Shown: one piece after another, positions 1,819 through 29,410 of the stretch
Layout: each line of letters begins with the position of its first letter
Numbering within the stretch: the stretch's first letter is position 1
Translations under genes and position numbers: made by a program
Notes under the pieces: generated by a model
Databases searched by the model: none
Seen by the model: only the letters and a program-made list of their open reading frames with translations
What the model was told of the DNA's origin: nothing
IMG/VR virus record: IMGVR_UViG_3300034418_005550
From: an uncultured virus (IMG/VR IMGVR_UViG_3300034418_005550)
Lineage: Duplodnaviria > Heunggongvirae > Uroviricota > Caudoviricetes
Reading direction: 5' to 3' (one strand)
DNA length: 64,000 nt

Positions 1819-2148
1819 TTAGGTTATTTCTAAAATACTTGCAAACGCCTGTAAATCGCCAGACGCATTACCGCCTGTCAAATCAATCTTATCGCCATTT
1901 TCTAAAAATAATTTAGAAGTTCCTGCTAACTCAATTGTGCTATCTGCTGGAACTGAAATAGTATAAGCAATTTTTGCACTACCAGAAGTTCCGTCAATAA
2001 CATCAGCAGTAATTGTATCATCGGTAGCACCATCAACATTTGTTATTCTAAGTGTTACAACTATTCCAGATCCTCCACTTGAATTTGTATATAATGTTTG
2101 AGCAGATGATGTGACATCTAAATATGCATTTTTGTAAGCCTCAGCCAT
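1819..2148 (-). CDS. Virion tail-associated protein
   Basis: 109 aa, nearly identical to 35341-35670. Confidence 0.6.
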   Translation of the reverse strand: MAEAYKNAYLDVTSSAQTLYTNSSGGSGIVVTLRITNVDGATDDTITADVIDGTSGSAKIAYTISVPADSTIELAGTSKLFLENGDKIDLTGGNASGDLQAFASILEIT

Positions 2149-2158
2149 TTTTTCCTCT

Positions 2159-2608
2159 CTATCCTAAAGCCAATATTAGTCCAACAGTTGCCCCTGCGGG
2201 TGCTAAATTTGCAATATCTTGAGCTGTTGTTTTCTTAATATTATTAGAATCTGATATGTCCCCTATAATAACTTCATCGCCACCCGCTACAGTTACAGAA
2301 GTTTGAGAATTGACATCAACTGCTAAAGATACCGCACCAGAAGTTCCTCCACCAGATAAGCCTGCACCTGCTGTAATTCCTGTAATATCGCCCTCGCCAA
2401 TAAAATTTGCCCAAGAAGATCCATTGTAAAATTGTAAATCGTTTGAATCTTTTAGATAACAAAACATGCCTTCTTCAGCAGAAGTGACAGCTGCGTCTCT
2501 GGCGGTAGAGTCGTCAAAAACCATGACTACTTGCTCTTGTATGTAATTATTGAAGTCTGAGGCATTAACCAGATCGCCTGTGCTCCAAACTTTAAAACCT
2601 GCTCCCAT
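2159..2608 (-). CDS. Minor tail/fibre adaptor protein
   Basis: GDITGITAGAGLSGGG fibre-like motif; follows distal tail gene; homolog 35681-36133. Confidence 0.6.
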   Translation of the reverse strand: MGAGFKVWSTGDLVNASDFNNYIQEQVVMVFDDSTARDAAVTSAEEGMFCYLKDSNDLQFYNGSSWANFIGEGDITGITAGAGLSGGGTSGAVSLAVDVNSQTSVTVAGGDEVIIGDISDSNNIKKTTAQDIANLAPAGATVGLILALG

Positions 2609-2630
2609 ATTATTAATTGCTCCTTTTTGT

Positions 2631-3899
2631 CTAAGTATAAACCAATCTTGTGCCTTCGCCCAACTTTGCTTGTCCTAATACCCAACCTGCTGAACCTGCA
2701 GGGCTAAGTGTTAAATTCCAATTCCAAGTTTGTGTGCTTGCATTTACATTATGGCTTATTGATTCAATCCATAATTCATCAGTATAGTCAGAAGAATCTG
2801 GATTGACTACTTTGACCAATATTCTGTCACCGAAGTTTAAATCAAGAGCTTTAGGCCATATATTGACATCTTCTCGTGGATTAATTTTTAAGCTATCAAT
2901 TCTAACAATAGGCAAAGCAGTTTCGCTAATTTTTTGTTCAATAATACTTAAGACATCAGAATCATTTACATTGATAGTCGATTGAGTTGAGGCTATTGGT
3001 CTGTATCTAGTTATAGAATTTGCGTCAGAAACAAATTGAGATGAGCCACCAGATCTAGTCCATTCGTAAATATTAATAACCTCATTTAAGTCAAAAGATG
3101 AAACAACATCTTGATAAGGCAAATATGTTCCGTCATTACTAAAAGACGCTTGAACATTTACAGCTTTAGTGTTTGATAATCTATAATCACGATTTCTAAA
3201 TATTGCCGTTCCGTCTGGATTCATAAAAAATTGGGCATTCTCAGCTTTTTCTACTTCTCTTAATAATGTAAGAACATCAGAAGTTTTTGTTGATTGAGTT
3301 TGAACATTTACAGTTCCAGTATTTATATTACGAAGAGATGAGGGGAATTGTATTTGGTCTAATAATCTTGTAATTCTTGCACTAGATAATTCTTCTTCAT
3401 CTTCATATCCCATTACAGTTGATATACCTATTTCAGAAAAACCACCCCTGCCTAATCTCCACCCAGATGAATTTAAAGTGATTGAGTTAAATATTTTAAA
3501 AGCATCGACACAATTAAAACGAACAACTGAATCTGCACCAATTGCAGGATAAGATACAGGGATAGTATCAAGAAAACCATAAAACAAATCATATGTAGTT
3601 GAATCATAAGTTGCTTTTATTCTTACTACCTTATGAGGTTGAATTTTAGTAATACCATTTACATTGTCATAATAAGGTGAAGAAGTATTGTTAGGATTAA
3701 ATCGATTGTCTGCATTTGATAATAATATTTGTGCAGTTCCTCCAACGAATTGTCCTAATTCATTTGCTCTTCCCCTTTTTGTAGTAAATTGTCTTACATA
3801 AGTTGATACATCTGTAAAAGTTATTGAGCTGTCGAATGGATCAGAATCAAAACCAATTTCAACAGTTAAATCAACATTGGAATCAAAAGCAACACTCAT
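2631..3899 (-). CDS. Minor tail protein (distal tail/baseplate hub-like)
   Basis: 422 aa directly after tape measure; homolog 36144-37412. Confidence 0.7.
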   Translation of the reverse strand: MSVAFDSNVDLTVEIGFDSDPFDSSITFTDVSTYVRQFTTKRGRANELGQFVGGTAQILLSNADNRFNPNNTSSPYYDNVNGITKIQPHKVVRIKATYDSTTYDLFYGFLDTIPVSYPAIGADSVVRFNCVDAFKIFNSITLNSSGWRLGRGGFSEIGISTVMGYEDEEELSSARITRLLDQIQFPSSLRNINTGTVNVQTQSTKTSDVLTLLREVEKAENAQFFMNPDGTAIFRNRDYRLSNTKAVNVQASFSNDGTYLPYQDVVSSFDLNEVINIYEWTRSGGSSQFVSDANSITRYRPIASTQSTINVNDSDVLSIIEQKISETALPIVRIDSLKINPREDVNIWPKALDLNFGDRILVKVVNPDSSDYTDELWIESISHNVNASTQTWNWNLTLSPAGSAGWVLGQAKLGEGTRLVYT

Positions 3900-6385
3900 T
3901 AAAAAGCCACATTAATTCCACGCCTTGCACCTTCTTGAAGTGCTTTAGCTACTGCCTCTTCAATATCAGTTCCACTTGCTAAGGCTGCACCTACATTAAC
4001 TGTAACCAAATTTGTATTATTATATCTTGCTAATCCACCGCCAATGTCTGTAAAAGTACCTCTTGTTGGAACTTCTGCACCACCACTTGGTGGAAATTTT
4101 AATCCGCCACCAGATCCGCCACCAGATCCGCCACCACTTGAAGGAATACTTGGGGCTGATACGCCTACACGACTTTGCTTAGCAAACATTTCATCATACA
4201 TTTTGTTTATCTTTCCAATTTCGATTCCAGTTATTTGAGCCATTTTTTTAATAGCGTCTTCATAGCCTTTTGTTCCCTCACCGAAACTGGCTAGAGCTTT
4301 TGTTAATTGTTCTTGTGCTATTGCTTGTTCAAGTGTATTTCTAAAACTTTGTTCTGATACTTTGTTCAATTCTTTTTGAGCCTCAGTGACTCTATCTATA
4401 GCCTCAGTTCTTAAGTCTTCAGCTCTTGTTAAATCTTTTTCAGCTTGTTCTACAGCTCTTAATGCGTCTTTTTCTTCTCTGGATAACGCTGTAGATTCTT
4501 CTATCAATTTTGCTAACTCTTGTTGAGCTAGTTGTAGCTCTAGTTTTTGGATCGTGGAGAGTTCTTCTTGTTCTTGTAAAGCTCTTATTGTTTCTTTTTG
4601 TCGCTCTATTGCTAACTGTTCTTCTAATGTAACTTTTGCCCCTATACCTTGAACACTTGCTAGATGTTGTTTTGCTTTATCTAAATTCTCTGTAGCTTTT
4701 TCTACTTGTTCTTCAGCTTTAATTTGTTTTTCTAGTGCTTTATTTCTTTTATTTTCTGCGTTATTGACTCTGTCTTGAATAGATTGCATTTTATCAAGTG
4801 CATTCATTACTGACTGCAATCCGCCTAGTAATCCGTCTTCATATGCTTGTGCAGTTTCAAGTGCTTCTTTTGCGTTTTCATCTAAGGCGATTGCGTTTTG
4901 GTCAAGTAAAGAAGTTAATTGTGAAACTGTGTAATTTGTTCCATCTAAAATTTCGTCAAGTGATAAAGTTGAATCCACCAGATCTTCTGTTTTTTTACCT
5001 ACAAAACCTGTATAATATTCTTGCAATTTATAAGCATTAGTAAGTCGTTCTGCTTTTTCTGCAGCCTCTTCATATTTATCATTACTTTTTCCAATAGCCT
5101 TAAATAATTTACTTAAGCCTGTAACCACTAATGAAATACCTGGAAATAAAGCAAAAGACAATATTTTTGCAACTGTTTTTAATTTTACGCCCATTATTTC
5201 AATTGGTGCATTTGCACTATTTAATCTATTTCTAAAATTTTGTATTCTTTCAACAGATGTAGTTAAATTTGAAACCAAATTTTTAAGAAAAGGCATTAAT
5301 TCTTCGCCTAATGTTATTGCTAAATTTTGTAAATTATTTCTAAGTAGTTGTGTCTGTGCTTTAAAACTTTCAAGTTGTTTTTCTGCAATAGCTTGTGTAG
5401 TTCCGCCTGCTCTTCTTAATTCATGTTCATAATTACGGATCTGGTCTGTCGAACCACTTAAAATCTTTACTGCGTCTGCTACACCACGATTAAGTCCTAA
5501 TTGATCCAAAGTCGCAGCTTTCATTTCATCTGACATTGGCCCCAAAACTCTATCAAGTTCTTCAACTATATCAGCAACATTCTTCATCTTGCCTTCTGAA
5601 TCGAACATTTGAAGTCCTAGCGCAGCAAATGCCTCACTATTTTTTGCGGTAGCTCTTGGAATATCTCGAAGAACTTGGTTAAGTTTTTCACCACCCTCAG
5701 CACCTTTAACACCCCTATCAGCGAATGCTGCAAGAACGGCTACACCCTCTTCTACATCTTTATTAACAACCTTTAAAGCTGCACCTGCTTTAGTAGTTAA
5801 AGCCTCAGCAAATTGTTGAACACTTGCGTTTGCTAAAGTGTTAGCTTTTACAAGAACATCTGTAACTCTTGTTAATCCCATGAGGTTTTCTCTTGCGTCT
5901 TTTGAAGTTAAACCTAAAGCTGATTGAGCGTCAGTTGCTAAGTCGGTAGCTGTAGCCATGTCGAACATACCTGCTTGGGCAAAGGCAGCAACTTGGGGCA
6001 AAGCTGCAATAGATTGTTCTGCGTCTAAACCTGCAGACGCTAAGAAGAAGAACGCCTCAGCTGATTGGTCAGCAGAAATTGTAGTTTCAGTTGCTACTTG
6101 TCTTGCCGCCATAGCCATTTGCTCTTGCTGAAGAGTAGTAGTTTTCATGATTGCAAGAGATTGCGTCATCTTGTCTTCAAATTCAGTAAATGCTTGAACA
6201 GATTCTATAACGCCTTTTGCTAAAGCAAGAACTGCACCTGCTGCGACAGCTGCACCAACTTTTGCAAAATTTGCTAGTTTAGTTCCTGCAAGTTTTCCGC
6301 TTTTACCTAATGTCTCAAGCTGACCTCTAGCTACATTTGCCCCTTTTGTAGCTATCCTAATTATTAAGTCTGCACCTGCTCCCAT
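3899..6385 (-). CDS. Tail tape measure protein (TP901-family core)
   Basis: 828 aa, Ala-rich, FEDKM...SAEAFFFLASAGLDA motifs, coiled coil. Confidence 0.93.
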   Translation of the reverse strand: MGAGADLIIRIATKGANVARGQLETLGKSGKLAGTKLANFAKVGAAVAAGAVLALAKGVIESVQAFTEFEDKMTQSLAIMKTTTLQQEQMAMAARQVATETTISADQSAEAFFFLASAGLDAEQSIAALPQVAAFAQAGMFDMATATDLATDAQSALGLTSKDARENLMGLTRVTDVLVKANTLANASVQQFAEALTTKAGAALKVVNKDVEEGVAVLAAFADRGVKGAEGGEKLNQVLRDIPRATAKNSEAFAALGLQMFDSEGKMKNVADIVEELDRVLGPMSDEMKAATLDQLGLNRGVADAVKILSGSTDQIRNYEHELRRAGGTTQAIAEKQLESFKAQTQLLRNNLQNLAITLGEELMPFLKNLVSNLTTSVERIQNFRNRLNSANAPIEIMGVKLKTVAKILSFALFPGISLVVTGLSKLFKAIGKSNDKYEEAAEKAERLTNAYKLQEYYTGFVGKKTEDLVDSTLSLDEILDGTNYTVSQLTSLLDQNAIALDENAKEALETAQAYEDGLLGGLQSVMNALDKMQSIQDRVNNAENKRNKALEKQIKAEEQVEKATENLDKAKQHLASVQGIGAKVTLEEQLAIERQKETIRALQEQEELSTIQKLELQLAQQELAKLIEESTALSREEKDALRAVEQAEKDLTRAEDLRTEAIDRVTEAQKELNKVSEQSFRNTLEQAIAQEQLTKALASFGEGTKGYEDAIKKMAQITGIEIGKINKMYDEMFAKQSRVGVSAPSIPSSGGGSGGGSGGGLKFPPSGGAEVPTRGTFTDIGGGLARYNNTNLVTVNVGAALASGTDIEEAVAKALQEGARRGINVAF

Positions 6386-6577
6386 TTATCTTGTCCTTTT
6401 TTTGCTTTCAGCGTCTGCTATTGCTATTGCTTTATTTCGTTCTTCTTGTTCCCAAAGGTAAAAAGTTGCCCATTGGTTGAACTCTTTTAATGACATAGTA
6501 GCTTGTAATTCACCTACTGTCATGCATAAGTCCCTAGCTAGTCTAAAGCGGAAGGCAAGATCTGGATTATTCTTGAA
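6386..6577 (-). CDS. Tail assembly chaperone C-terminal frame (gpGT-like, probable frameshift product)
   Basis: Missing from ORF track; FKNNPDLAFRFRLARDLCMTVGELQATMS...W matches 39758-39946. Confidence 0.8.
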   Translation of the reverse strand, partial: FKNNPDLAFRFRLARDLCMTVGELQATMSLKEFNQWATFYLWEQEERNKAIAIADAESKKRTR

Positions 6578-6908
6578 ACTCGTCAGACATTAAAGTCTGG
6601 TCATCATCTCCAATCCCATTTAAGTTTGATATTTCAATAAATAGCCTGTCGATGATTTGAGCGTCCAGATCGTATAATTTTTCGATTGCCTCATCATCTA
6701 GCTTTGGATCTATAACGCTCACTTGCAATAGAGCTTTTTGATAATCAAAAGCGTCTTTTGATTCATCTTGAGTTATACGAGCCAAATCGATTTGCATTTT
6801 TTTTGTTAAACCACGAATGACAACTTTTGCGTTCCATTCTTTTATAACAACTTCTTTTGTTTCAACATTAGGAAGTTTTCCTAAGTTGTCTATATTTAAA
6901 ATGTCCAT
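6567..6908 (-). CDS. Tail assembly chaperone (gpG-like)
   Basis: Between tail tube gene and TMP; homolog 39936-40277. Confidence 0.8.
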   Translation of the reverse strand: MDILNIDNLGKLPNVETKEVVIKEWNAKVVIRGLTKKMQIDLARITQDESKDAFDYQKALLQVSVIDPKLDDEAIEKLYDLDAQIIDRLFIEISNLNGIGDDDQTLMSDEFQE

Positions 6909-6927
6909 ATGCGTCCTTTATGAATTA

Positions 6928-7338
6928 TTAGTGTGTGCCTCTTGTGACAGCACCGCTTACTTGAAAATCTGCGGAATATGCAACTACATCGCCTACAGGT
7001 GAACTTTGAGCGTAGCTTGTCAAAATACATTCGCCTGTATATTTGATATTGCCGCCTGTTGTTCCCTCTGGTGAGTATTCAAAAGATAGAGTTGCGGATT
7101 GTCCAACGACAGCTCCCAAAATTCCATCTATTGTGCTGTCCCAAAGTCCTGCTATTGCTATTGTTGCGTCCTTAAGTCCAACAATATAAGTTTTATTGCC
7201 GTCCCCAAGTACAGTTGTTTCAGCAACATCTGCAGTTTCTGGGAAATCCACAGAATTAATGTATGACGATATGTCAGTAAGTGTTCCACCAGAATCGTCT
7301 AGTTTAAAAACACTGTCCTTACCATGTGTAAATGCCAT
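6928..7338 (-). CDS. Major tail (tube) protein
   Basis: 136 aa, ETTVLGD..KTYIVGLKDAT motif, position before chaperone. Confidence 0.8.
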   Translation of the reverse strand: MAFTHGKDSVFKLDDSGGTLTDISSYINSVDFPETADVAETTVLGDGNKTYIVGLKDATIAIAGLWDSTIDGILGAVVGQSATLSFEYSPEGTTGGNIKYTGECILTSYAQSSPVGDVVAYSADFQVSGAVTRGTH

Positions 7339-7358
7339 ATATTGCTCCTATTCTTCTA

Positions 7359-8069
7359 TTACTTGTTTCTTCCAAAGCCTACAATAGCAGAAAAACTTGG
7401 TGTTGTTCCGCCAATAGTAGCCTCAACTTTTAGATATCTGTTTACAGTAGTTCCCTCAGCTACATATTTTATTTCACTTGTAGTCGAAGTGGCTTGTGTA
7501 AATGTTACCAAATCTACATAAGTGACATCATCAGCTGAATGAGTTATTTTAATATCAGCTGTAGGGGAAGTTCCAGACGCAGCAGATACTATTAAAAAAC
7601 CTGCTCCACCGTCAGCGGTTGAAGAGCTGTTATCTCTAGCAGTTCCACTTGTTGTTGAAGTATAAGTTGCACTCTCTAAGATATCGCCATCATATAAACC
7701 ATTATCACTTTGAATATCAATAGAAGTAGCAACTACATCGCCAACTGGAGAGCTAACACCATAATTTGTAATGTTTCCATTTTGAAATCTAACTTTATCG
7801 GTAGCGTCAGTTCCCTCAACGCCAATTAATAAAAGACAATCAGCACCGCCTAAAAGTGGTTGTATAGTTGCGTCAGCTGTTGCGTCAAAAAATCCTGTAA
7901 GTGAAACAGTTCCGTCTTTGTTACCAACTATGTATGTTTTATTTGAGTTTCCAAATGTAGTTGTTTCTGCAATGTCAGCGGATCTGGTCGAATCAGCTGA
8001 ATTAAAATAACTTGAAAAATCTGTTTCGTTTAAATATATTTTTGTATCTTTACCATGCACAAAGGCCAT
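7359..8069 (-). CDS. Tail tube paralog with C-terminal extension
   Basis: N-terminal ~125 aa paralogous to 6928-7338 (MAFxHGKD...SSPVGDVV) plus ~110 aa beta-rich domain. Confidence 0.7.
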   Translation of the reverse strand: MAFVHGKDTKIYLNETDFSSYFNSADSTRSADIAETTTFGNSNKTYIVGNKDGTVSLTGFFDATADATIQPLLGGADCLLLIGVEGTDATDKVRFQNGNITNYGVSSPVGDVVATSIDIQSDNGLYDGDILESATYTSTTSGTARDNSSSTADGGAGFLIVSAASGTSPTADIKITHSADDVTYVDLVTFTQATSTTSEIKYVAEGTTVNRYLKVEATIGGTTPSFSAIVGFGRNK

Positions 8070-8143
8070 TATCTTTTACCACCATTCCTGCGTCTGCCTC
8101 TTCTTCTATTATTACTACCACCAGTTGATCCATACTTAGGCAT
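8069..8143 (-). CDS. 24-aa Arg/Gly-rich micropeptide MPKYGSTGGSNNRRRGRRRNGGKR
   Basis: TAATG-coupled at both ends; positional homolog at 41445-41516. Confidence 0.7.
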   Translation of the reverse strand: MPKYGSTGGSNNRRRGRRRNGGKR

Positions 8144-8358
8144 TATTCTTCCTCAAATTCTGTATCAGTGTCTTCTACTTTTACATTAACACTCTCTTGC
8201 AATTTTTTCTCTTTATAGGCTTTTGTAATTTCTACAATTATCTTTTGTTTCACTAACCATTCCAATGACTCTTTAGGAATGTCACTTTTATTAATAGTGT
8301 CACCTGCAATAAATTCTTTTTTCTTAATTTTTATTCCTGTTAAAACTTCATAAGCCAT
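8143..8358 (-). CDS. Small conserved morphogenesis-region protein
   Basis: DIPKES..WL motif shared with 41516-41683. Confidence 0.75.
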   Translation of the reverse strand: MAYEVLTGIKIKKKEFIAGDTINKSDIPKESLEWLVKQKIIVEITKAYKEKKLQESVNVKVEDTDTEFEEE

Positions 8359-8765
8359 TACGCTAAAACCTCCACTATGAATTCTACACCAAGATAATCA
8401 ATATTGTTTATATTATACACGCCATAATTACTTGCTGATAATACTCTAACAGATTGAGCTTGTCCATTCAATGTTAAGTCAGATTCTATTTGAGCTTTTA
8501 CAGAACTTGCCCCGCTTGAAATCAAATATCCGTCTAAAGTGTTTTGGCTATCTTGTGCGTCCACTCTACCTACATAAAGATAAACTGGAATTTCATATCT
8601 ATCTACACCCCTTTGCATAGTTGCGTCATAGCTTACACGATCCATTACGCCTACAACAGCTGTAGGTGGTTCAACCGAATCTGGAACATATTGATATACA
8701 CTAAGGCTTGTAATATTTGAAAGATTATTTCCAATTTCATTTCTTATGTTTGTTAAGTTCGCCAT
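8358..8765 (-). CDS. Putative tail terminator/completion protein
   Basis: Synteny; homolog 41683-42090. Confidence 0.6.
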   Translation of the reverse strand: MANLTNIRNEIGNNLSNITSLSVYQYVPDSVEPPTAVVGVMDRVSYDATMQRGVDRYEIPVYLYVGRVDAQDSQNTLDGYLISSGASSVKAQIESDLTLNGQAQSVRVLSASNYGVYNINNIDYLGVEFIVEVLA

Positions 8766-8774
8766 TCCAGATCC

Positions 8775-9293
8775 TTATTGTTTGACTGTCATTCTACCAA
8801 CTTTCCATTTGGTTTCAATCGCAATTGCAGCTCCTGCAAGAAGTGCTTTTTTTTCTGCCTCACTATCTCTAATAGCAATTTTAAAAAATGGTATAAGTGG
8901 TGTTCCTTTACGCCCTATGGCTTGTTGAACTGCATAAGGGCTTATGCCGTGGTCATCTGACCAATCTCTTAGAGCTTTAATAGGTGGATAGTGTGGCTTA
9001 CTTCTTGACCATGGTTCTTTTAGTTTAACTTTTTGGTCATAATATCCATGAACATAAAGTGCGTAAGGGCTTCGACTATACAAATCAATTCCCTCAACAA
9101 AACCTGCTGTCTTTACCATATCGAATGTAATAGAGCCACGAAGATTGCCTCGCCAACTAGGTGCAGCTTTTTTTGCAGCGACAGTAATAGTTTGCCCATA
9201 AGCTGAAAAGAAATTACGAAGAGCTACACCTGCTAAGGCGTTGAGCTCCATTCTTTTTCTGAATTGATTTCCGCCAGATATTGTGTTGGCCAT
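8775..9293 (-). CDS. Neck protein (HK97 gp10-like)
   Basis: AP...G.LR.SI, YALYVHG and PFF..A motifs. Confidence 0.7.
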   Translation of the reverse strand: MANTISGGNQFRKRMELNALAGVALRNFFSAYGQTITVAAKKAAPSWRGNLRGSITFDMVKTAGFVEGIDLYSRSPYALYVHGYYDQKVKLKEPWSRSKPHYPPIKALRDWSDDHGISPYAVQQAIGRKGTPLIPFFKIAIRDSEAEKKALLAGAAIAIETKWKVGRMTVKQ

Positions 9294-9919: not shown

Positions 9920-9926
9920 TTAAAAC

Positions 9927-10121: not shown

Positions 10122-10139
10122 TTTTCCTTTTTCCTTTGA

Positions 10140-21184: not shown

Positions 21185-21201
21185 ATGCTCAAATTATACA
21201 T

Positions 21202-21239: not shown

Positions 21240-21245
21240 AATTAA

Positions 21246-21707: not shown

Positions 21708-21843
21708 TTTTAGATTCCCCTTTCAATATTTTCTCGAATCATAAACTCATTATATAATATATAAATTATATATACAAGCAAAAAAACCTTTTTTTTATTG
21801 ATTTTTTATTAGGCTAGATAGTGAGTTGTCTGATTACAAAGCT

Positions 21844-21866
21844 CTTAAATCGGCTCAAAATGGCCT
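21844..21866 (+). repeat. 23-bp inverted repeat, copy 1
   Basis: CTTAAATCGGCTCAAAATGGCCT; exact reverse complement at 29463-29485. Confidence 0.85.
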
Positions 21867-21868
21867 GT

Positions 21869-22357: not shown

Positions 22358-22512
22358 TTCCATACCATTCTGTTTAGTAGATGATTTTTAATCCAAGCCC
22401 CGCATACCATACATTCTAATGTAATCCAATTCATATGACCTACAACAAAAGTGTTATAACAATCCCAACAAATTATGTAGGTGTTTTCAAAATATATTTC
22501 TTGTTCTTCCAT
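22330..22512 (-). CDS. Small Zn-ribbon protein
   Basis: CWDC...CMVC. Confidence 0.5.
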   Translation of the reverse strand: MEEQEIYFENTYIICWDCYNTFVVGHMNWITLECMVCGAWIKNHLLNRMVWKWLQKKNLI

Positions 22513-22584
22513 AAATTCAGTTTAATGCAAGTAAGTGGCGGTTGGGCTGCAATCCGCCACTTATTGCGCTACTGCGTCAAGTAG

Positions 22585-23034
22585 CTACCCTGTTGGTTTT
22601 TGCTCTATTGGTTTAGGCTTGTCTGAATCTACTTGAGCTTGTAAAACTTTTTCTAACCAATATGGATTGTCGCCTGTCCATAGGTGTAAGCCTAGCCCTA
22701 GATTTCTTGCACATCTTTTAAAAGCGTCTGACTCTGCTTTTTTGAGTAAGTCGCCATTGTTATCTTTTGTATTGATTGTATTTGCACTTCCAGATCCTTG
22801 AACTGCATATGTTTGGTCATCAACAACTACTTGTAATTCCCCAATACAACCACTTACTTGTCCATTAGGTTCATAAATTATTTCCTTAATTGACCAATCA
22901 TAATTCCCGCAGACTTCCAAAAGTCTTTGAGCAATAGTTCCAAAGGGCACATAATCTTCTTCCCCATGTGCTTTTTTGATTTGCTTGATAAAGTCTTTTG
23001 GAAAAACTTTAGCAAGTGCTAATTTTTGTTTCAC
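22585..23034 (-). CDS. Rad52/Sak-like single-strand annealing protein
   Basis: LKKAESDAFKRCARNLGLGLHLW. Confidence 0.8.
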   Translation of the reverse strand: MKQKLALAKVFPKDFIKQIKKAHGEEDYVPFGTIAQRLLEVCGNYDWSIKEIIYEPNGQVSGCIGELQVVVDDQTYAVQGSGSANTINTKDNNGDLLKKAESDAFKRCARNLGLGLHLWTGDNPYWLEKVLQAQVDSDKPKPIEQKPTG

Positions 23035-23152
23035 TTTTTCCCCTTTTTCTTTTTCTTTAATTCATTAAAAGATTCTTTGACATCTTCTATTGAATTTATA
23101 TCAACTATATTTTTTTCTACAGTATTGCCGTCAATGTCCATAAATGTAATTT

Positions 23153-23356
23153 TCATATTCCAACCTTTCCTATAATTGCAACTTCACCTGCAGTGTGTTC
23201 TATCATTTTTGAATTTAAGACAATCATTTTCTTTTGTAAGCTATCCATTTTATGTAAAGCCTCCAATGCCTCAACCATTCTTTTATTTACTTCTTCCAAT
23301 TTCTCAACAGATTTTTCCAGATCGTTGATTTTTTGTAAGAGTTCTTCTTTATTCAT
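23153..23356 (-). CDS. Hypothetical coiled-coil protein
   Basis: Coupled ORF in early operon. Confidence 0.55.
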   Translation of the reverse strand: MNKEELLQKINDLEKSVEKLEEVNKRMVEALEALHKMDSLQKKMIVLNSKMIEHTAGEVAIIGKVGI

Positions 23357-23537
23357 TGTTCTCTCTTCCATTCAACCATTCGGCAATAGTATCTTTTGCC
23401 CACAATGGATTACCACTAACAACAGCGTCTTCTTCTGGAAGTTTCCCGTCACTTCTATATTGTCTGACAGTTTGTTCTTTTAATCCAGTTGCCATTGCTA
23501 TTTCTTGAATACCAAATATGTTTTCCCAATTAATCAT
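23349..23537 (-). CDS. Small HTH DNA-binding protein (AlpA/excisionase-like)
   Basis: GIQEIA..TG...TVRQY...GKLP...G.PLW; homolog 57600-57791. Confidence 0.75.
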   Translation of the reverse strand: MINWENIFGIQEIAMATGLKEQTVRQYRSDGKLPEEDAVVSGNPLWAKDTIAEWLNGRENNE

Positions 23538-23733
23538 TTTTAATCTCGAACATATTATCAGTTGTTATTTCTTCACCTTTATTCAATCGATCCATAAAAT
23601 CAACATTTGGTTTTTGTTCATATTCAAAACCAAACATTTTTGCTAGTTTTACTGCTACTTCACCGAGAAGAGCACCAATAGCAATTATTGAAATAAAAGC
23701 AAAAGCAATATAAATAACGCTTACATCATTCAT
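23530..23733 (-). CDS. Hypothetical membrane protein
   Basis: N-terminal hydrophobic helix. Confidence 0.55.
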   Translation of the reverse strand: MNDVSVIYIAFAFISIIAIGALLGEVAVKLAKMFGFEYEQKPNVDFMDRLNKGEEITTDNMFEIKND

Positions 23734-23923
23734 AGTTGTTCCCTTTCCAAATTACTTATACTTGTGCTTCAATATGTGAAACGCATAAATCACAATGAGG
23801 ATAACTTGCACTGCCTAATTCAATAGGCGGTTCATTATCTTGCATTAATTCTTTACACATGTCACATCTGTAAATAAATAATTCTTTCATAATATATACA
23901 TTATATAAGATACATGCGATATA

Positions 23924-24679
23924 TTAAGCATATATTTTTTGTTCTTCTTGACAGTAATAACAAACATGTAATTGATATTTAGCATGTTCATAACCGCTAT
24001 CACGGAATTTATGGCCATCTGTTTTACAGTCCCAGATCTTTTCAGTTTTTGCTTTTTCTTCTACTCTTCTTAATATTTGACCAAAGTTGCTTGCAATAGC
24101 AGTAGGTGTTATATCAATATCTTTCCAGTTAGTCTTATACCAATCTGATACAGCTCTAACTTCTTCTGTAGTTGCGTTCACTTCTCTTAATTGTTTAGTA
24201 GCTTTTTGTAATCTTCCTAGCTCATTCTTTGGAGCTCTGTTCCAATCTATCCCACAACAATTTGCAATCTCTTCAAATAATAAATCTCTTCTTCTTTTGG
24301 TTTTCTTAATATGGTTTTCTTTGAGCGACTCTGCAGGGGCTACCCTAGTGTCGTCTGTGTCGCTACCCCTAGCGACTGACATGTCCCTACCCTCAAAACG
24401 ATTAAGAAAATATTGATTTACTTTATTACTGCCGTCAGCTTTTTTCTCTCTAAATACTTTTATTGCTTTTATAGTTTCCAGATCCTTAATTGCTCTATCA
24501 ACAGACTTAACAGAACAGCCTGCTCTTTTTGCAATAGTGGATCGTGAGGGATAACACTTCCCCTCACTATCAGCAAAACCACAAAGAACTGAATATATTA
24601 CTTTGCTTTTATCAGATATTTCAGATTCTAAAACCCACCGAGCGACTATGTTAAATTTAACATCAGTTTCAAAATGCAT
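23924..24679 (-). CDS. Replication initiator with N-terminal HTH
   Basis: ISDKSKVIY..L, CYPSRSTIAK..GCS..SVDRAIK.L, NQY; internal repeats; homolog 56207-56959. Confidence 0.8.
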   Translation of the reverse strand: MHFETDVKFNIVARWVLESEISDKSKVIYSVLCGFADSEGKCYPSRSTIAKRAGCSVKSVDRAIKDLETIKAIKVFREKKADGSNKVNQYFLNRFEGRDMSVARGSDTDDTRVAPAESLKENHIKKTKRRRDLLFEEIANCCGIDWNRAPKNELGRLQKATKQLREVNATTEEVRAVSDWYKTNWKDIDITPTAIASNFGQILRRVEEKAKTEKIWDCKTDGHKFRDSGYEHAKYQLHVCYYCQEEQKIYA

Positions 24680-24847
24680 ACAACCCCTTTCATCATCTTT
24701 TAAAACATTCAGAACAAATTGAAAGCCCTAAAAACTCGCCTTTGGTTTTTTGATAGTGCCGTTCTGAACCACCATAAATCATACTTGCACAGCTGTAACA
24801 AGAATGAAACTCAACACAAATACAAGTTGTAAATTCTTCACCTTTAT

Positions 24848-25126
24848 TCATAAATTCAATTTTAGTTCTTCACCAGGTTTAGCAATTAATTGATAATACG
24901 CACCATCACCTTTTTGATTATCAACAACATCAATAATATAACCACGCTTACGCAATTTATGAACTGAACTTGATAACCTGCTTATGTAAAGTTCATATAC
25001 AATTTCTTTTGTTGATAGTGGTTTTTCTTTTTTGAATCTCTCTAAAGCCCAAATTAATTTATCTTCATGAGTCTTTAAAGAGCTAGGCAAAATGCATTCC
25101 CTAAAGCTGTAAGGTATAAACGCCAT
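24848..25126 (-). CDS. Winged-helix DNA-binding protein
   Basis: ISRLSSSVHKLRKRGYII. Confidence 0.6.
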   Translation of the reverse strand: MAFIPYSFRECILPSSLKTHEDKLIWALERFKKEKPLSTKEIVYELYISRLSSSVHKLRKRGYIIDVVDNQKGDGAYYQLIAKPGEELKLNL

Positions 25127-25175
25127 TATTCCTCCTCAGCTTGTCCTTGTAAAAAATAAAAATAATCTTCTTCCA

Positions 25176-25487
25176 TTATTCTTCCCCCAATTCACTTTTC
25201 CAACACTTGTTACATAACATAAAGTCATCAGACTCTAACGGAAAAAAACCAATTTTACTACAAAAAGCACACATAAACCAACGAGGTTCAGCGGTGTCAT
25301 TTCTTGTAAGTAAATTAGTAAAGTATTTTTGTAGTGATTCTTTATCTACTTTTACTTCAATTTTATTTCCATTAAGATCTGGTAATTGAATTATCAATTT
25401 GTTCTCCAATCTTTTTTTATAATTATAACAAAACAATAAAACTGAATGGGCTATAATGAAAACATCTTTATTCATTACATCGTGCAA
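25176..25487 (-). CDS. Hypothetical Zn-finger protein (start uncertain)
   Basis: CAFC...CNKC at C-terminus. Confidence 0.45.
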   Translation of the reverse strand: MHDVMNKDVFIIAHSVLLFCYNYKKRLENKLIIQLPDLNGNKIEVKVDKESLQKYFTNLLTRNDTAEPRWFMCAFCSKIGFFPLESDDFMLCNKCWKSELGEE

Positions 25488-25517
25488 ACGAGTGGTCAGA
25501 ATCTAATTAGTTGTTCT

Positions 25518-26162
25518 CTAATCTTCTGACCATTGTTCGGCCATAGCTTGAGCAACACCTTTAAAAAATACACTTCGCAATTTACTGCGTTCTTCACTAG
25601 GCGGCAAGTTCCATTTACTTGAACGGATATGTTTTGGAAGTTTCATTATTTCTTCTGTTCGGTCATTTGTTTTTTCTAATTTTGGTAAATTTTTTAACCA
25701 TAAAAAAGTTCTTTTTGATTCTAAGTCGCCAAACTCATAAGGTTGAATTATTTGGTCTGCCTCTTTTATATAAGTTGTAATTAATGAGTTAGGATTTTCA
25801 ACGCAAATTTTTGGAATAGGTGCGTCCATTAAGAGCTTTACAAAAGCTAAAGCCTCAAACATTTTTTTTCTACGATCTGGGTAATTTGGGTGTTCTCTTC
25901 TCAAATCTCTTTGTAAGTGCATATCTCTTGGATCATAAAGTGCCCAACTTCCGCTAATAGCAAGATAAGTGCAAGGTGGATGAGCTATCATCAAATCCCA
26001 ACCATCATATAAAATGTCTTTTACATCACCTACATAATGTGTAGCAAGTCCGCCAAAATCACTTTCAGTTTCAAGTAAATCACAACTTACAGCGTCATGA
26101 CCAAGTTTTAAAAATTCATCTCTAACGATTCCTGAATATTCACATGCAACTAAAACTCTCAT
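25518..26162 (-). CDS. Phage C5-cytosine DNA methyltransferase-like protein
   Basis: VLVACEYSG motif I variant, DLMIAHPPC motif IV, VENP motif VI, G.A.AMAEQW end. Confidence 0.75.
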   Translation of the reverse strand: MRVLVACEYSGIVRDEFLKLGHDAVSCDLLETESDFGGLATHYVGDVKDILYDGWDLMIAHPPCTYLAISGSWALYDPRDMHLQRDLRREHPNYPDRRKKMFEALAFVKLLMDAPIPKICVENPNSLITTYIKEADQIIQPYEFGDLESKRTFLWLKNLPKLEKTNDRTEEIMKLPKHIRSSKWNLPPSEERSKLRSVFFKGVAQAMAEQWSED

Positions 26163-26707
26163 TCTTCAGCTTTCCATAACTCATTCCAATTATTATTGTT
26201 CCAACATTCCTTACTAGGTGTCCATGGTTTCCAATAATTATTTCTTGAATGAATATCTTGAACTAAAATTTTACTAATTAAAAAATTGTAGTAAGGAACA
26301 AATTGCACTTTATTTAGTCTATAGAGATTTGGATAATTTGAAATCAATATTCTTCTTAAACTTAATGGAATGTTTTCAACTGGAATATTATTGTAAGTTA
26401 AAACATAAGAATTAAATTTAGGCAAGTCATATTCTGTTGCTACCCAATTCCAAGTGCTAGGTATAACTTGAAATAAACCACTATCATTATTTCCTTTGTT
26501 AAGTGCAAAAGTTTTTCCCCTAGATTCGCACCACGAAACTTTTACAGCTCTCTCTATATTATGAGTTTCAAAATGCTCAACATAATCTTTTGAATATTGA
26601 ATAACATTTGTTGGTAAATAATTATTACATTCTTTTACTTTTAAAATGTCATCTTCTTTTAATGGATCTTGAAGACTAGCAAAGAATAAAATACATTCAA
26701 CAATCAT
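26159..26707 (-). CDS. Lytic transglycosylase (SLT-like)
   Basis: WCES catalytic Glu, DSGLFQV..STW. Confidence 0.8.
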   Translation of the reverse strand: MIVECILFFASLQDPLKEDDILKVKECNNYLPTNVIQYSKDYVEHFETHNIERAVKVSWCESRGKTFALNKGNNDSGLFQVIPSTWNWVATEYDLPKFNSYVLTYNNIPVENIPLSLRRILISNYPNLYRLNKVQFVPYYNFLISKILVQDIHSRNNYWKPWTPSKECWNNNNWNELWKAEE

Positions 26708-26839
26708 ATAAGAAAAGGCTGACTAGGTTTGTTACACGACAGGGGAATCATATATGAAGAACTAATCAGCCTTAAACTTGTTTTAATCATAATGATTATT
26801 TTACATTATAAAAGTGATAAAACCATGTAGAATTGAATA

Positions 26840-27493
26840 ATGGTAAATGCCATAGATTTTAAAAATAGTTTTGTTGCCTTTTCTGGAGGCAAAGATAGTG
26901 TGGCTGTATCAAAATATGTAAGAGAAGAATTAGGTTTATCATTACCTCATGTCGCAGTAATAAATCATGAACTAGATTATGAAGAACATATTGATTATAT
27001 AAGAGATTATTGCGATGATAATAAAATAGAATTGCACTTCCAGATCCTTAAAAATCGTGGCCTAGATTATGTAATACATAATCCAAAATATATATTCCCT
27101 TTTGATTCAAAAGTAAAAGGTGATTGGTTTAGAAAATTTCAACAATATGGAATTAAAAAATTTGCAAAAGACAATAATTATTCAACAATAATTTATGGCC
27201 GAAGAATAGCAGACGGCAATAATATTAAATCAGAATATTATAAAACAGCTGATAATCTTTTTCATTATTTTCCTTTAAGGATCTGGAGCAACGAGCATAC
27301 AAATTATTACATATCAAAGGAAGAGCTGTCGCCTATATATGAAACAGAATTAGGTAAAAGGCGTGGAACACACACTATCAATATTGCTAATGAATATAAT
27401 GGAACAGATGAAATTGGGCTTGAATTAGTAAAATCAATTAGTCCAGATAAAGCAAAAATTGTTGAAGAGCTTTTAAAAATTAAATATAAATAA
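26840..27493 (+). CDS. PP-loop/PAPS-reductase family protein
   Basis: VAFSGGKDS, IYGRRIAD, PLRIWS. Confidence 0.8.
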   Translation: MVNAIDFKNSFVAFSGGKDSVAVSKYVREELGLSLPHVAVINHELDYEEHIDYIRDYCDDNKIELHFQILKNRGLDYVIHNPKYIFPFDSKVKGDWFRKFQQYGIKKFAKDNNYSTIIYGRRIADGNNIKSEYYKTADNLFHYFPLRIWSNEHTNYYISKEELSPIYETELGKRRGTHTINIANEYNGTDEIGLELVKSISPDKAKIVEELLKIKYK

Positions 27494-27544
27494 TTACACT
27501 TTTTTATATATATTCTATATAATGGATTGTATGAAAGGGGAATT

Positions 27545-27742
27545 ATGAAAGTAATTACAGCAGTAGAAATTGATTGCATTAATCCAAATTGTAATGATGA
27601 TTGTTGCTATGAAGACAAACAACATTTTAATTTAGTTTATGTAATTAATAATGAAGTAGAAGAATATAACTGTGACAATTGTGGAGCAGTTTTACCTATT
27701 GACAAAGAGTTAATAGAACAATTAAAAAGGGGGCATGAATAA
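27545..27742 (+). CDS. Small Cys-rich hypothetical protein
   Basis: GGGGG RBS, upstream TATAAT; CINPNC...CDNC. Confidence 0.6.
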   Translation: MKVITAVEIDCINPNCNDDCCYEDKQHFNLVYVINNEVEEYNCDNCGAVLPIDKELIEQLKRGHE

Positions 27743-28002
27743 TGTTAGCTATAAACTCAACTTTTAATGAAGTTGAAATGGATGTAAAAGCAGGAATAAA
27801 AGTTAATGCTGTAGCAGCATTAAATTATGTTCTTGAATTGGAAGGTGAAATATGTTCGTTAGACAGAACATTTACTTCTAATTTAAGGCATTGTGTTTAT
27901 ATATTAAAAGAGAGAACTGCTAAAGAAATTTACAAAGAAGAATGTAAATGTGGTGGCTCGAATAGAAAACATAGTAAATATGTTTATGATTGGGCTAGTT
28001 AG
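27742..28002 (+). CDS. Hypothetical protein
   Basis: TAATG-coupled ORF followed by terminator. Confidence 0.6.
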   Translation: MLAINSTFNEVEMDVKAGIKVNAVAALNYVLELEGEICSLDRTFTSNLRHCVYILKERTAKEIYKEECKCGGSNRKHSKYVYDWAS

Positions 28003-28014
28003 TTAAATAAAATT

Positions 28015-28050
28015 CAGCCTATCAATTAATTTTGGTAGGCTGTTTTTTTT
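28015..28050 (+). terminator. Intrinsic terminator
   Basis: CAGCCTATCAA...TTGGTAGGCTG + T8. Confidence 0.75.
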
Positions 28051-28183
28051 CATCCAAATTGATTTCTATTGGTTCAGTAAGGTGAAAAATTCCTTTTGGA
28101 AGTTCTCTTATCTCTACTGAATCATTATCTGTATGAATGACACTAACTTTGTAGCCTGTGTTATCAATAGCAATAACTTTCAT
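28022..28183 (-). CDS. Small hypothetical protein
   Basis: 53 aa MKVIAIDNTG...KGIFHL; positional homolog 63758-63895. Confidence 0.55.
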   Translation of the reverse strand: MKVIAIDNTGYKVSVIHTDNDSVEIRELPKGIFHLTEPIEINLDEKKQPTKIN

Positions 28184-28222
28184 ACTAAAAATTATACATA
28201 ATATATATAATTATGTCTATAT

Positions 28223-29410
28223 TTATAACAATTCTAAGTTTGCCCAACCTTTTTCATTTATTGTAAAAGTGAGAACTGCAGGGTGGCTCCAAAGTCCAGA
28301 TCTCTCTGTAAAGTCAAGTGATTTGTCTAAGCTAGGTGCTTGAAACCAAGCTCTATTGCCTTGATACTTACTTCTGAAATGATGATAATGACCTGTAATA
28401 AGAATCTCACATTCACCTGCAGGAAGATGTCCATACATTTGACCTTTCCACCAATTTTCTATTTTTGCCTCAGCGTTAGATCCACCGCCACTTGACATAT
28501 GGCCGTGTGTCCAACCTACTGTTCTATTTTTAATTGTCATAACTTGATGAAAGCCTTTTGGTATTTCAACTTTTACATTTTTATAACGATCTGGATTGGC
28601 GTTCATAATTTCTTCACATATTTGCAAGTGCATTGTGTCTGAATTATCTAATCTATTAGTAAGAACTTGTCCTTTACCACTTCTTGTCATCTCTCCATGA
28701 TTACCTGGTGCTCCCGCCAAAACAATTTTGTCTGCTAAAGGCAAAAAAGTATCTACTGTTTTCATAATCATTGACCTAGCTAATGCGTATTGCTCAATCA
28801 ATGTGAGAGAAACATTAAAAGGTTGGCTGTCGAAAAAATTTTGCGAACAGTTTTCTGTCAAGTCGCCTAATCCAACTATATAAATTTCATCAATTTGATT
28901 TCCCAACTTCCTTAAATCTTTTATTCTATTTACTGCGTCTTGTAGTGCTATATCATATCTATTAATTGTATTTGTAACACCGAAATCAACTTTGCCTAAT
29001 TGCCAATCAGCCATAAAAAACATAAAAGCTGTATCACCGCCATAAGTTTTTTCTTTTATTGGTAATTTTTTTTCTACTCTTTTTAAAAGTTCAGTGACAT
29101 ATTTATCCCTTAATGGATTTTTTCTGCGGACTATTCCTTTGAATGCATAAAATGTTTCAATTCTGCCGCCTTTGAGTTGAACATTCCAACTGGAAGTTTT
29201 AACTGCCCCCTCAATCGTGTAAAGTTTTGGATCATATCCCCAACTTTTTAATATCTCATCAAATTTATTTGCATAATTTGGGTCAGTTCCAACATGTGTA
29301 ATTTCCCCAGATCCTAATTCTTCATCAATTTCTATTTCTGGTTTCCAACCATGTTTATAAAAATTGTTGCCCCATTCTTGTTTAGGTGCGTGTTTATTTT
29401 TTTTGGTCAT
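28223..29410 (-). CDS. Calcineurin-like metallophosphoesterase (Mre11/SbcD-like)
   Basis: ADWQ, GLGD, PGNH, THGH, TGHYHH motifs. Confidence 0.85.
   Translation of the reverse strand: MTKKNKHAPKQEWGNNFYKHGWKPEIEIDEELGSGEITHVGTDPNYANKFDEILKSWGYDPKLYTIEGAVKTSSWNVQLKGGRIETFYAFKGIVRRKNPLRDKYVTELLKRVEKKLPIKEKTYGGDTAFMFFMADWQLGKVDFGVTNTINRYDIALQDAVNRIKDLRKLGNQIDEIYIVGLGDLTENCSQNFFDSQPFNVSLTLIEQYALARSMIMKTVDTFLPLADKIVLAGAPGNHGEMTRSGKGQVLTNRLDNSDTMHLQICEEIMNANPDRYKNVKVEIPKGFHQVMTIKNRTVGWTHGHMSSGGGSNAEAKIENWWKGQMYGHLPAGECEILITGHYHHFRSKYQGNRAWFQAPSLDKSLDFTERSGLWSHPAVLTFTINEKGWANLELL

Follow-up and report, generated by a model that had tools for sequence, protein, structure and literature searches.

Phage A, an uncultured aquatic phage and the first of two phages in a 64-kb window (i.e., the whole stretch of DNA analysed here), retains GATC, a common restriction target, only inside two longer words, CCAGATC and TGGATC (66/66 sites of the window), both of which are over-represented and evenly spaced (Table 1). 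We propose, with a rough probability of 45%, that these are modified, shielded GATC sites kept as regularly spaced self marks against a host defence that scans DNA.

Composition of the window

The window is a chimera in which phage A is followed by phage B, a relative with no GATC and no GGCC. True A contigs (L098, L099) diverge from the window beyond about 30.7 kb and carry additional CCAGATC there. The distal tail region of A is probably an exchanged module. An assembly artefact was rejected as the source of the CCAGATC array, as independent contigs, 99.5-100% identical, have the same sites as A. Four assembled runs showed just 40 of the 951 differences, a number too small for a site-polymorphism test.

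Table 1 Features of the 64-kb window
Feature	Coordinates	Strand	Remarks
Distal tail region without CCAGATC	1..2065		gap >2 kb; shares 86-95% identity with B over part of its length
CCAGATC array, 39 sites	2066..29313	both orientations (24 +, 15 -)	mean gap 717, CV 0.46, largest gap 1316
TGGATC array, 26 sites	2418..29233		27th site at 81; mean gap 1072, CV 0.43, largest gap 1994
GGCC, 19 sites	2854..29467		all 19 read GGCCA on one of the strands (P about 1e-5); evenness weak (p 0.011)
ParB-like gene after IbrA-like gene	17399..17935	-	immediately upstream of the gene for the terminase small subunit; start set at internal ATG (ORF caller gives 18043)
PAPS-reductase + DUF3440 protein, IbrA-like	17928..19139	-	domain pair
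Sodium:solute symporter inside cassette	19105..20529	-	PF00474
Second ParB-like gene of cassette	20519..21184	-
Short C5-cytosine DNA methyltransferase-like gene	25518..26162	-	phrog_757; PPC motif; C5 methyltransferase fold
Second PAPS-reductase/PP-loop gene	26840..27493	+	78% homolog in G006
Junction zone	29701..33031		99.3% identity to end of record G004 (phage B)
Phage B	34009..64000		99.997% identity to G004; 7-deazaguanine gene set; used as control

Over-representation and sequence context

A preliminary description of the window reported about 39 copies of CCAGATC on both strands, against about two expected by base composition. Exactly 39 were counted, and the 11 positions it listed were all exact. 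Dinucleotide shuffles of the whole window gave an expectation of 2.86 (largest of 100, 8) and an order-2 Markov model 2.74, with CCAGATC the top-ranked heptamer of A. The description also rightly held CCAGATC to be commoner than the other CCAGATN words, of which positions 1-32000 contain 8 (A), 2 (G) and 4 (T); the base directly after CCAGATC is never A among the 39 sites. Its claim that homologous positions in B are altered applies to all 14 alignable sites of the 39, including GATCTGG at 9715, which reads GGTCAGG at 43653. The restriction to phage A that it described holds inside the window, where CCAGATC is absent from 29.4-64 kb, and fails outside it: the array is also present in a sister lineage, about 84% identical to A. 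The description mentioned neither the even spacing, whose ceiling is the most informative property of the array, nor TGGATC, the complete lack of GATC in B or the joining of two different phages in the window.

Coding demands do not account for the excess. Synonymous-codon shuffling predicted 3.26 +/- 1.74 coding sites (largest of 2000, 10) compared with 37 observed, an excess of about 11-fold that is independent of protein sequence. The coding sites are spread over all six frame/orientation classes (12, 8, 8, 4, 3, 2) and just 8/37 coding sites encode Pro-Asp, so that Pro-Asp or codon bias was rejected and the enrichment withstands the control for codon and dipeptide usage that the description had named. 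A one-site-per-gene rule was likewise discarded, since longer genes hold more sites (rho 0.69) and 10 of the 34 genes are without any.

TGGATC is 2.5-fold enriched and is never extended to TGGATCC. Every surviving GATC and GGCC of A is touched by CCA; the overlap of CCAGATC with CCA is unlike that of GATCCA and GGCCA. For GAAC, a third Dnd motif, 7 of 15 sequence sets, A among them, showed an enrichment of 1.3-1.5-fold, which is too weak to use.

Even spacing with both strands pooled

None of 20,000 random placements was as even as the pooled CCAGATC sites, and the word ranked first for evenness among 1029 words in A and among 1110 in the sister locus L084. Arrays specific to one orientation were rejected: taken singly, the strands show no significant evenness (p 0.05 and 0.54), and the minus-strand copies by themselves leave a 6,681-bp gap, whereas the pooled set is even at p <5e-5. 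Site decay under a 1,330-bp ceiling was simulated with four loss/gain settings, one of which returned a mean gap of 748 and a CV of 0.49. Exceptions to the ceiling are the tail-fibre region (positions 1-2065 of the window and 1-2115 of L098) and two further gaps, one of 1,754 bp in L098/L099 and one of 1,542 bp in the sister. The wider word CCNNATC tied for first among many gapped patterns, and its 25 extra sites fill gaps of A (P 0.00075), with no clear repeat of this filling in four sister loci (P 0.06, 0.78, 0.78, 0.04).

TGGATC does not act as a filler of CCAGATC gaps (P 0.68). A sub-array of TGGATCK, chosen post hoc from 735 words, has 16 sites with a CV of 0.25 and is partially repeated in L218 (11 sites, CV 0.35). 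Two separately even arrays would need two readers or two marks.

Turnover of sites between sister phages

Comparison with the sister (84% identical) found 18 sites common to both phages, with 11 of 29 lost and 8 new in the sister. The common sites alone would leave five gaps of 1.76-2.58 kb, which A and the sister fill with different sites (gap-filling test on the sum of squares, P 2.5e-5 for the sister and 0/40,000 for A). For six of the eight gains there is a loss within 200 bp (p 0.004 with local divergence matched), CCAGATC gains sit close to TGGATC losses (p 0.0009), and many gains and losses alter the encoded amino acids. It is therefore the spacing that is conserved and not the individual sites. 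Together with the excess that remains after codon shuffling, gap filling bears out the earlier argument that tolerance alone is insufficient and that a positive force acts.

GATC in related phages

Most relatives of A either lack GATC, have it in very large numbers, or carry similar arrays in which the flanks differ. Among loci with the capsid gene, 53 of 80 had no GATC at all, as had 63 of 80 among those with the phosphoesterase gene (both redundant sets). A modification gene was looked for in several zero-GATC relatives and none was found, suggesting that marks are not required everywhere. At the other extreme, G002 contains 454 GATC in 31.3 kb (in genes, 330 vs 116), with no modification gene among the ORFs scanned.

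Arrays with other flanks share a gap ceiling of 1.2-1.35 kb. In one lineage all 27 GATC in 18.2 kb fall in CGATCR (mean gap 665, largest 1331, P 1.4e-4), in L072/L060 GATC occurs mostly as TCGATC (largest gap 1240), and G006/L004 has an AGATC array (largest gap 1160), the word of G006 having been picked among 735 tested. The word differs among lineages with a common capsid and terminase module. The complete zero-GATC records G003 and G004 have no comparably even word, contiguous or gapped (best z -3.3 and -3.1, compared with -3.7 for CCAGATC; the gapped scan covered the 15-sequence set minus L112), and their best even patterns contain no GATC.

Candidate modification genes

The short C5-methyltransferase-like gene of A may encode the writer of GATCCA and GGCCA, the words that overlap CCA. 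Its family has at least 8,000 homologs, and a PDB sequence search with the protein gave no match. Homologs of 58-62% identity occur in L178-L183, which have neither a CCAGATC nor a TGGATC array, and one of 56% in L151, with zero GATC in 4.6 kb. A methyltransferase is present in all three array lineages with known early genes: the C5 type in A and the sister, and an N6/N4 type in G006, which lacks the C5-like gene of A, and in L313 (44% identical to each other). L313 combines the deazaguanine genes of B with the N6/N4 methyltransferase and has an array; in phage B, which is free of GATC, the genes scanned include no methyltransferase. The second word tracks this swap, being TGGATC with the C5 gene (A, sister) and TGATC with the N6/N4 gene (G006). 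The sister has an extra Dam-family gene, yet its pattern is not relaxed.

The PAPS-reductase + DUF3440 protein, which we take to be IbrA-like from this domain pair, is another candidate DNA-modification writer, and the CAGATC core is common to the two lineages that share its cassette. Against PADLOC it matched DndC (E 4.8e-6, residues 33-56) and SspD (E 0.0016), both weakly and over the first motif only; the scan, of 11 proteins, detected no dndCDE or sspBCD gene set. With the second PAPS-reductase/PP-loop gene as query, all six viral-contig loci found belonged to A or the sister lineage. The cassette was rejected as a sufficient cause, as CCAGATC is enriched in 0/44 distant symporter-cassette loci of at least 8 kb.

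Host

Searches of genome contigs with the capsid protein and with a phosphoesterase alignment gave no match, and no tRNAs were found in 11 loci. The closest named phage is at 33%, a WhiB-like pattern occurs only in the distant L252, and QueC homologs are of mixed taxonomy. An Actinomarinales host is only a guess from GC content, drawing on part of one account (PMC7771536).

Interpretation

According to the reading put forward at the outset, GATC would be dangerous in the hosts of this phage family, presumably through a GATC-cutting nuclease, and hence purged elsewhere. Phage A would retain only those GATC whose flanks permit chemical modification (i.e., shielding), and selection would keep such sites, in either orientation, at gaps of at most about 1.3 kb, in line with the observed spacing and turnover. 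A host anti-phage machine may load and travel along DNA until stopped or disarmed by a marked GATC, and would attack unmarked stretches longer than about 1.3 kb; it would resemble Dnd or DISARM, for which marks are self. We propose that the flank varies between lineages because the writer varies, and that the ceiling is constant because the reader belongs to the host. Several observations tell against this reading: the zero-GATC relatives in which no modification gene was found, the breaks in the ceiling, the two separately even arrays, the C5 homologs in loci without the arrays of A, and the unrelaxed pattern of the sister despite its extra Dam-family gene. Tentatively, the sites may amount to a genome-wide phage passport, with self-modified restriction sites at gaps below about 1.3 kb serving to pass a host defence that would measure how far apart the marks lie.

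If so, a single family would display three strategies against GATC-based pressure (none, very many, or spaced and shielded), and the ceiling would equal the scanning range of the host machine. Flanks of surviving sites would follow the phage's own writer and predict the specificity of uncharacterised phage enzymes; the IbrA-like cassette, for example, is predicted to use a CA/CCA context. How mark-sensing defences tell self when sites are partly marked is described as an open question in the portion of the literature consulted (PMC6435447), and the gap ceiling in phage genomes gives a testable number for self-recognition with partial marking.

A rather unlikely alternative, and the strongest, is a ratchet of methyl-directed mismatch repair, in which a phage methyltransferase marks some GATC sites, a MutH/Sau3AI-like nickase picks the strand within about 1 kb, and new sites are fixed only beyond the reach of others, giving a set point and even spacing through neutral or useful repair. 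It fits the GATC core, orientation independence, ceiling, gap filling and methyltransferase link, and the Elhai model of HIP1, in the sections consulted, predicts that sites saturate at roughly one per 1000 nt, that the word accumulating around a methyltransferase core is a longer one, and that a site acts from either side (PMC4390886). Repair should, however, protect the sites, and their conservation is barely above that of other heptamers (15/27 vs 10.7 expected, p 0.07; one-off variants 12/28), nor is four-fold-site divergence lower near them (Spearman 0.024, p 0.29; 1,894 sites, at short distances that give weak power). Moreover, the words are asymmetric, so that a mark on one strand informs one daughter duplex only, and MutH is restricted to some gammaproteobacteria according to the same part of that source (PMC4390886), a host that nothing here suggests. 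If the ratchet were true, this small, fast-evolving family would test the HIP1 model better than cyanobacterial chromosomes, because its word varies from one close relative to another and the sites gained and lost are traceable. On either reading, the flanks yield target predictions for the short C5-methyltransferase family and the IbrA/ParB/symporter cassette.

We consider it unlikely that the mark is written, or the site bound, by the host with the phage genes uninvolved. An orphan methyltransferase, a flank-preferring phosphorothioate writer or a nucleoid-type binding protein would then read CCAGATC and TGGATC, and the spacing would reflect protection by bound protein or host marks. The insufficiency of the cassette, the abundance of GATC in G002, which implies a GATC force without phage writers, and the distinct CCA overlap of CCAGATC all favour such a host factor. 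Against it stand the switch of the second word exactly with the phage methyltransferase and the CAGATC core of the cassette-sharing lineages, only two independent contrasts in all.

Among the causes proposed in the preliminary description, anti-defence and HIP1-like repair survive, whereas packaging and ParB binding find no support. A packaging, condensation or ParB-binding signal of the phage's own is very unlikely: two ParB-like genes adjoin the terminase genes and orientation independence is compatible with it, but B and G003 have homologous head, terminase and ParB-like genes with zero GATC, the array word varies across the common capsid/terminase module, G003 and G004 lack a comparably even word, and the purge of all other GATC is left unexplained. 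Chi sites and primase starts are both orientation-dependent, so the evenness seen only with strands pooled, together with the rapid change of word among relatives and the absence of a primase among 71 proteins scanned, largely refutes such signals despite a short, asymmetric, over-represented word, leaving them highly improbable. Shielding alone, codon bias or assembly artefact has next to no chance as a full explanation: shielding accounts for which GATC contexts survive and the window is chimeric, but the excess, even spacing and gap filling are unexplained and the sites occur in independent contigs.

Comparison with known systems

The literature searched, which left most subscription journals outside and does not establish absence from print, contained no account of phages with spaced GATC arrays and no report of phages evolving them against Dnd/Ssp. 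Chi sites and DNA uptake sequences are likewise over-represented short asymmetric words. Unlike the words of A, Chi is orientation-dependent, and uptake sequences belong to host genomes, with no purge of near words. Phages avoid restriction sites, and their own methyltransferases can shield the survivors. As in such avoidance, most relatives have purged GATC and GGCC, the sites that survive lie in fixed flanks and methyltransferase genes are present; avoidance with shielding would, however, leave survivors in random places and in numbers no higher than chance, and those of A are enriched and even.

The cited parts of work on phosphorothioation give GATC as a Dnd motif and CCA as an Ssp motif, with about one mark per kb in E. 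coli B7A (4,855 sites), only partial marking of GATC, and a DndFGH complex that translocates and nicks (PMC6435447, PMC10470545). The likeness to the scheme proposed for A lies in the motifs, partial marks and translocating complex, and A has two PAPS-reductase-family genes. However, A has no dnd or ssp gene set, and its DndC match is confined to one short segment. T1 gained no protection from Dam methylation against a Dnd system of the GATC type (PMC10470545, in the portion cited), which counts against the self-mark reading.

DISARM is similar in its helicase complex damped by methylated DNA and its asymmetric 6-bp methylation motifs (PMC9142583, 10.1101/2021.12.28.474362, the passages cited). 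As these describe it, DISARM restricts phage without its motif and methylated DNA reduces its ATPase (PMC9142583); more unmethylated motifs lead to more restriction by class 1 DISARM (10.1101/2021.12.28.474362), again counting against self marks. Its known motifs are not GATC words, and the descriptions drawn on contain no distance rule.

HIP1 (GCGATCGC) and the alternative HIPs of cyanobacteria are also hyper-abundant words with a GATC core, found in all frames and linked to a methyltransferase (PMC4390886, PMC5861425, as excerpted). The proposed set point near one per kb and the variation of the word by lineage, as given there, are further likenesses to A. In contrast, A is a phage with two arrays of non-palindromic words and other GATC purged. 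Its regularity takes the form of a ceiling on gaps at about 1.3 kb, whereas that described for HIP1 is a 10-90 kb periodicity, and its sites turn over quickly, while HIP1 sites are reported, in the same excerpts, to be conserved.

An evenly spaced word in phage A

Comparison with related records and contigs showed that the window is a chimera of two related tailed phages, A (left) and B, joined at 29701-34009 in a near-identical lysis/tail-end stretch common to both. True A contigs (L098, L099) diverge from the window at ~30.7 kb and show A's own continuation, with further CCAGATC. Because A is repeated at 99.5-100% in independent contigs, the sites are not assembly errors. The preliminary description had reported about 39 copies of CCAGATC on both strands of the A part, enriched over base composition; 39 were indeed counted (24 plus, 15 minus; span 2066-29313), with none in the remaining window, against a chance count of ~3 by dinucleotide shuffling or 2.74 under an order-2 Markov model, by which CCAGATC is the top heptamer of A. 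The excess also persisted under the codon and Pro-Asp control proposed there: holding protein sequences and codon use constant left 3.26 ± 1.74 coding copies expected (maximum 10 in 2000 shuffles), against 37 found; these use all six frame classes and encode Pro-Asp in only 8 cases. Copies per gene track gene length rather than gene number. Fourteen of the 39 sites could be aligned to phage B and every one is altered there, as had been noted.

Gaps between CCAGATC sites average 717 bp (CV 0.46; random 0.96) and reach at most 1,316 bp, a regularity matched by 0 of 20,000 random placements and ranking first among 1029 words in A and 1110 in L084, a locus of a sister lineage. This evenness requires both strands to be pooled: taken by themselves, the plus-strand copies give p 0.05 and the minus-strand copies, which leave one stretch of 6,681 bp empty, p 0.54. 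The remaining GATC sites of A are all TGGATC, with 27 copies in the window as a whole and 24 within genes, where 9.7 are expected. TGGATC, too, is evenly spaced (mean gap 1072, CV 0.43, largest 1994), with no tendency to fill CCAGATC gaps (P 0.68). Total GATC in A genes is at neutral expectation (61 versus 62-64), yet confined to these two words. Likewise, GGCC reads GGCCA on one strand in 19/19 cases (P 1e-5; sister 17/17); therefore, CCA contacts each surviving GATC and GGCC in A. The ceiling, the largest gap tolerated, is exceeded by >2 kb without CCAGATC in the distal tail region and by a 1,754-bp gap covering a stretch common to A and B, both of which look like recent exchange with GATC-free relatives.

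Locations of features in the window and in related loci
Location	Feature	Detail
Window 34009-64000	Phage B part	99.997% match to viral record G004
Window 29701-33031	Junction zone	99.3% match to end of G004
Window 1-2065; L098 1-2115	Distal tail region of A	No CCAGATC
Window 21838-21870; 29459-29491	Inverted intergenic elements	33-55 nt, 82-91% complementary
Window 50996-51040; 54975-55029; 60500-60560	Further shared inverted intergenic elements	Same class
Window 1-30500 (A); 30501-64000 (B)	GACGC/GACGCA	~4-9-fold over-represented, also in many relatives; A, 41 versus 14.9 after codon shuffling
Window 53022-63390; L313:1949-7651	Modification cassettes of B and L313	7-deazaguanine + ParB-DUF6610
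L091:5619-11336	Modification cassette of G003	Thymidine hypermodification (ADDT, P-loop kinase, amidoligase, TET/JBP)
L112:7043-8981	Modification cassette	TET-associated glycosyltransferase
L091:641-1717	Tryptophan-halogenase-family gene (G003)	Tail/lysis region
L177:3104-3661	Dam-family methyltransferase	Sister, not A
L178:2095-2832	Mom-family gene	Adjoins C5 homolog
L088:11557-13812	751-aa ORF (G002)	Between holin and phosphoesterase genes; leader, Thr/Pro-rich linker, long Glu/Ile-rich acidic region; no family match passes the threshold

The shared inverted intergenic elements are probably regulatory. ACGT is absent from A.

Turnover of sites between A and its sister

The description of CCAGATC as confined to phage A holds within the window and fails among relatives. 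In 21.4 kb aligned at 83.6% identity with the sister (L218, L219, L177, L102, L006), 18/29 sites are shared, 11 being specific to A and a further 8 to the sister; for TGGATC, 15/21 are shared, with 6 in A only and 8 in the sister only, and no other GATC occurs in the aligned part. With the shared CCAGATC sites alone, five gaps would measure 1.76-2.58 kb; lineage-specific sites fill these in both A and the sister (P 2.5e-5 and 0/40,000). Six of eight CCAGATC gains lie <200 bp from a loss (p 0.004, local divergence matched; TGGATC, p 0.05-0.09). Gains also fall close to TGGATC losses (p 0.0009; in one case a single GATC was converted from one word to the other, and in another the two lie 9 bp apart), which speaks against a clean two-array picture. 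Single sites are kept slightly above other heptamers (15/27 versus 10.7, p 0.07), and many of the changes alter amino acids. What is conserved between A and its sister is thus the spacing, not the individual sites. The sister's pattern is not relaxed despite its Dam-family gene.

GATC words in other relatives

Among capsid-gene and phosphoesterase loci (80 each, both sets redundant), 53 and 63, respectively, contain no GATC, and CCAGATC occurs in only six capsid-gene loci, each of which belongs to the A, sister or G006 lineage. In L016 and L027, relatives of B with zero GATC, CTAATTC exceeds expectation 4.5-6-fold (18 versus 2.9; 19 versus 4.2). G002 carries 454 GATC in 31.3 kb (330 in genes versus 116 expected), none of its scanned ORFs being a modification gene; its GATC-rich clade (L088, L089, with L026, L028-L034, L038) has 11-16 per kb, ~3-4 times expectation, and has lost nearly all CCAG, CTCC, CCTC, GAATC, GAAGC and GATGC.

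Three further lineages carry spaced words. GATC in L313 and L297 is CGATCR in 27/27 cases (mean gap 665, largest 1331, P 1.4e-4), and in L072/L060 YCGATC in 22/23, mostly TCGATC (mean 673, largest 1240). In G006/L004 (L096, L004) it is TGATC or CAGATC only, apart from a single GGATC-flanked variant class that is included in the count of these; CAGATC gaps average 1456 (CV 0.29; 879 to 2309), and AGATC, a word picked from 735, has a largest gap of 1160. There, GGCC is TGGCCCA or its complement in 10/10 cases, and GCGC is followed by A on one strand in 12/12. Across array lineages the largest gaps gather at 1.16-1.34 kb; one gap in the sister reaches 1,542 bp. When decay was simulated in a toy model with a 1,330-bp ceiling, a loss/gain of 3 yielded a mean of 748 and CV 0.49, and the three remaining settings yielded different values.

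Modification genes

Adjoining the terminase genes of A are genes for a ParB, a sodium:solute symporter, a PAPS-reductase/DUF3440 protein, which we take to be IbrA-like, and a second ParB. Elsewhere lie a second PAPS-reductase gene and a short methyltransferase gene (the C5 gene), whose predicted structure (pLDDT 92.8) resembles the C5-cytosine methyltransferases DNMT3A and M.HaeIII (E ~1e-6, TM 0.43-0.57). Phage B has 7-deazaguanine genes in place of A's set, and DNA-modification cassettes are swapped within the family; DUF6610 may occupy the place expected for a guanine-exchange enzyme. G006 has A's cassette and an N6/N4 methyltransferase, lacks the C5 gene, and keeps the CAGATC core while TGGATC becomes TGATC. 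L313 combines B-type deazaguanine genes with an N6/N4 methyltransferase 44% identical to that of G006. In the records of B and G003, each rated as complete, GATC is absent and none of the scanned ORFs is a methyltransferase. Exceptions to a methyltransferase-array link are L151, whose 4.6 kb contain a C5 homolog and zero GATC; L178-L183, where C5 homologs occur without CCAGATC/TGGATC arrays; and the sister, with its Dam-family gene and unrelaxed pattern.

Of 44 distant loci with the symporter cassette that span at least 8 kb, none showed CCAGATC enrichment. GATC is mostly TGATC in 5/10 tested, which may be mutually related (L238, 29/34; L242, 29/31; L246, 23/27; L258, 17/19; L266, 27/30); L047/L049, G005 and L112 also lean this way. 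This hints at a possible CA-context signature of the IbrA-like/symporter cassette.

Possible mechanisms

The established pattern comprises a GATC purge, two words, their excess, an orientation-free ceiling, gap-filling turnover and its repeat in three other lineages. GATC-cutting pressure may act on these phages, the surviving words would be chemically shielded, and some process would require a marked GATC within ~0.65 kb of every point. Our favoured reading (probability about 0.45), the anti-defence option of the preliminary description, is that a DNA-scanning host defence spares DNA once the mark is met. Dnd combines partial marking of GATC with translocation (PMC6435447, PMC10470545), and DISARM restricts phage lacking its motif and is damped by methylation (PMC9142583). 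Contrary to this reading, the same literature reports that Dam methylation does not protect T1 from GATC-type Dnd (PMC10470545) and that class 1 DISARM restriction rises with more unmethylated motifs (10.1101/2021.12.28.474362).

Repair bias, also proposed earlier, comes second and is rather unlikely: the ratchet of Elhai would build up the word towards a set point predicted near one per kb (PMC4390886), and much of the pattern fits, but it is somewhat weakened because sites turn over fast and, over the short distances available, which limit power, no divergence gradient near them was seen. A host-only writer (an enzyme placing the mark) or binding protein is improbable. The suggested packaging or ParB-binding signal deserves little credence, and a Chi or primase signal even less.

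Relation to known systems

The spaced-word pattern is real and well replicated, and goes beyond ordinary restriction-site avoidance. No description of spaced GATC arrays in phages was found in the literature searched, whose coverage excludes most subscription journals. A close likeness is HIP1, an abundant, spaced, GATC-cored and methylase-linked word (PMC5861425). A's words differ from it in being asymmetric and viral, with other GATC purged and sites labile, and do not belong to HIP1; the pattern is a departure within spaced methylation-linked words, HIP1-like but set apart.
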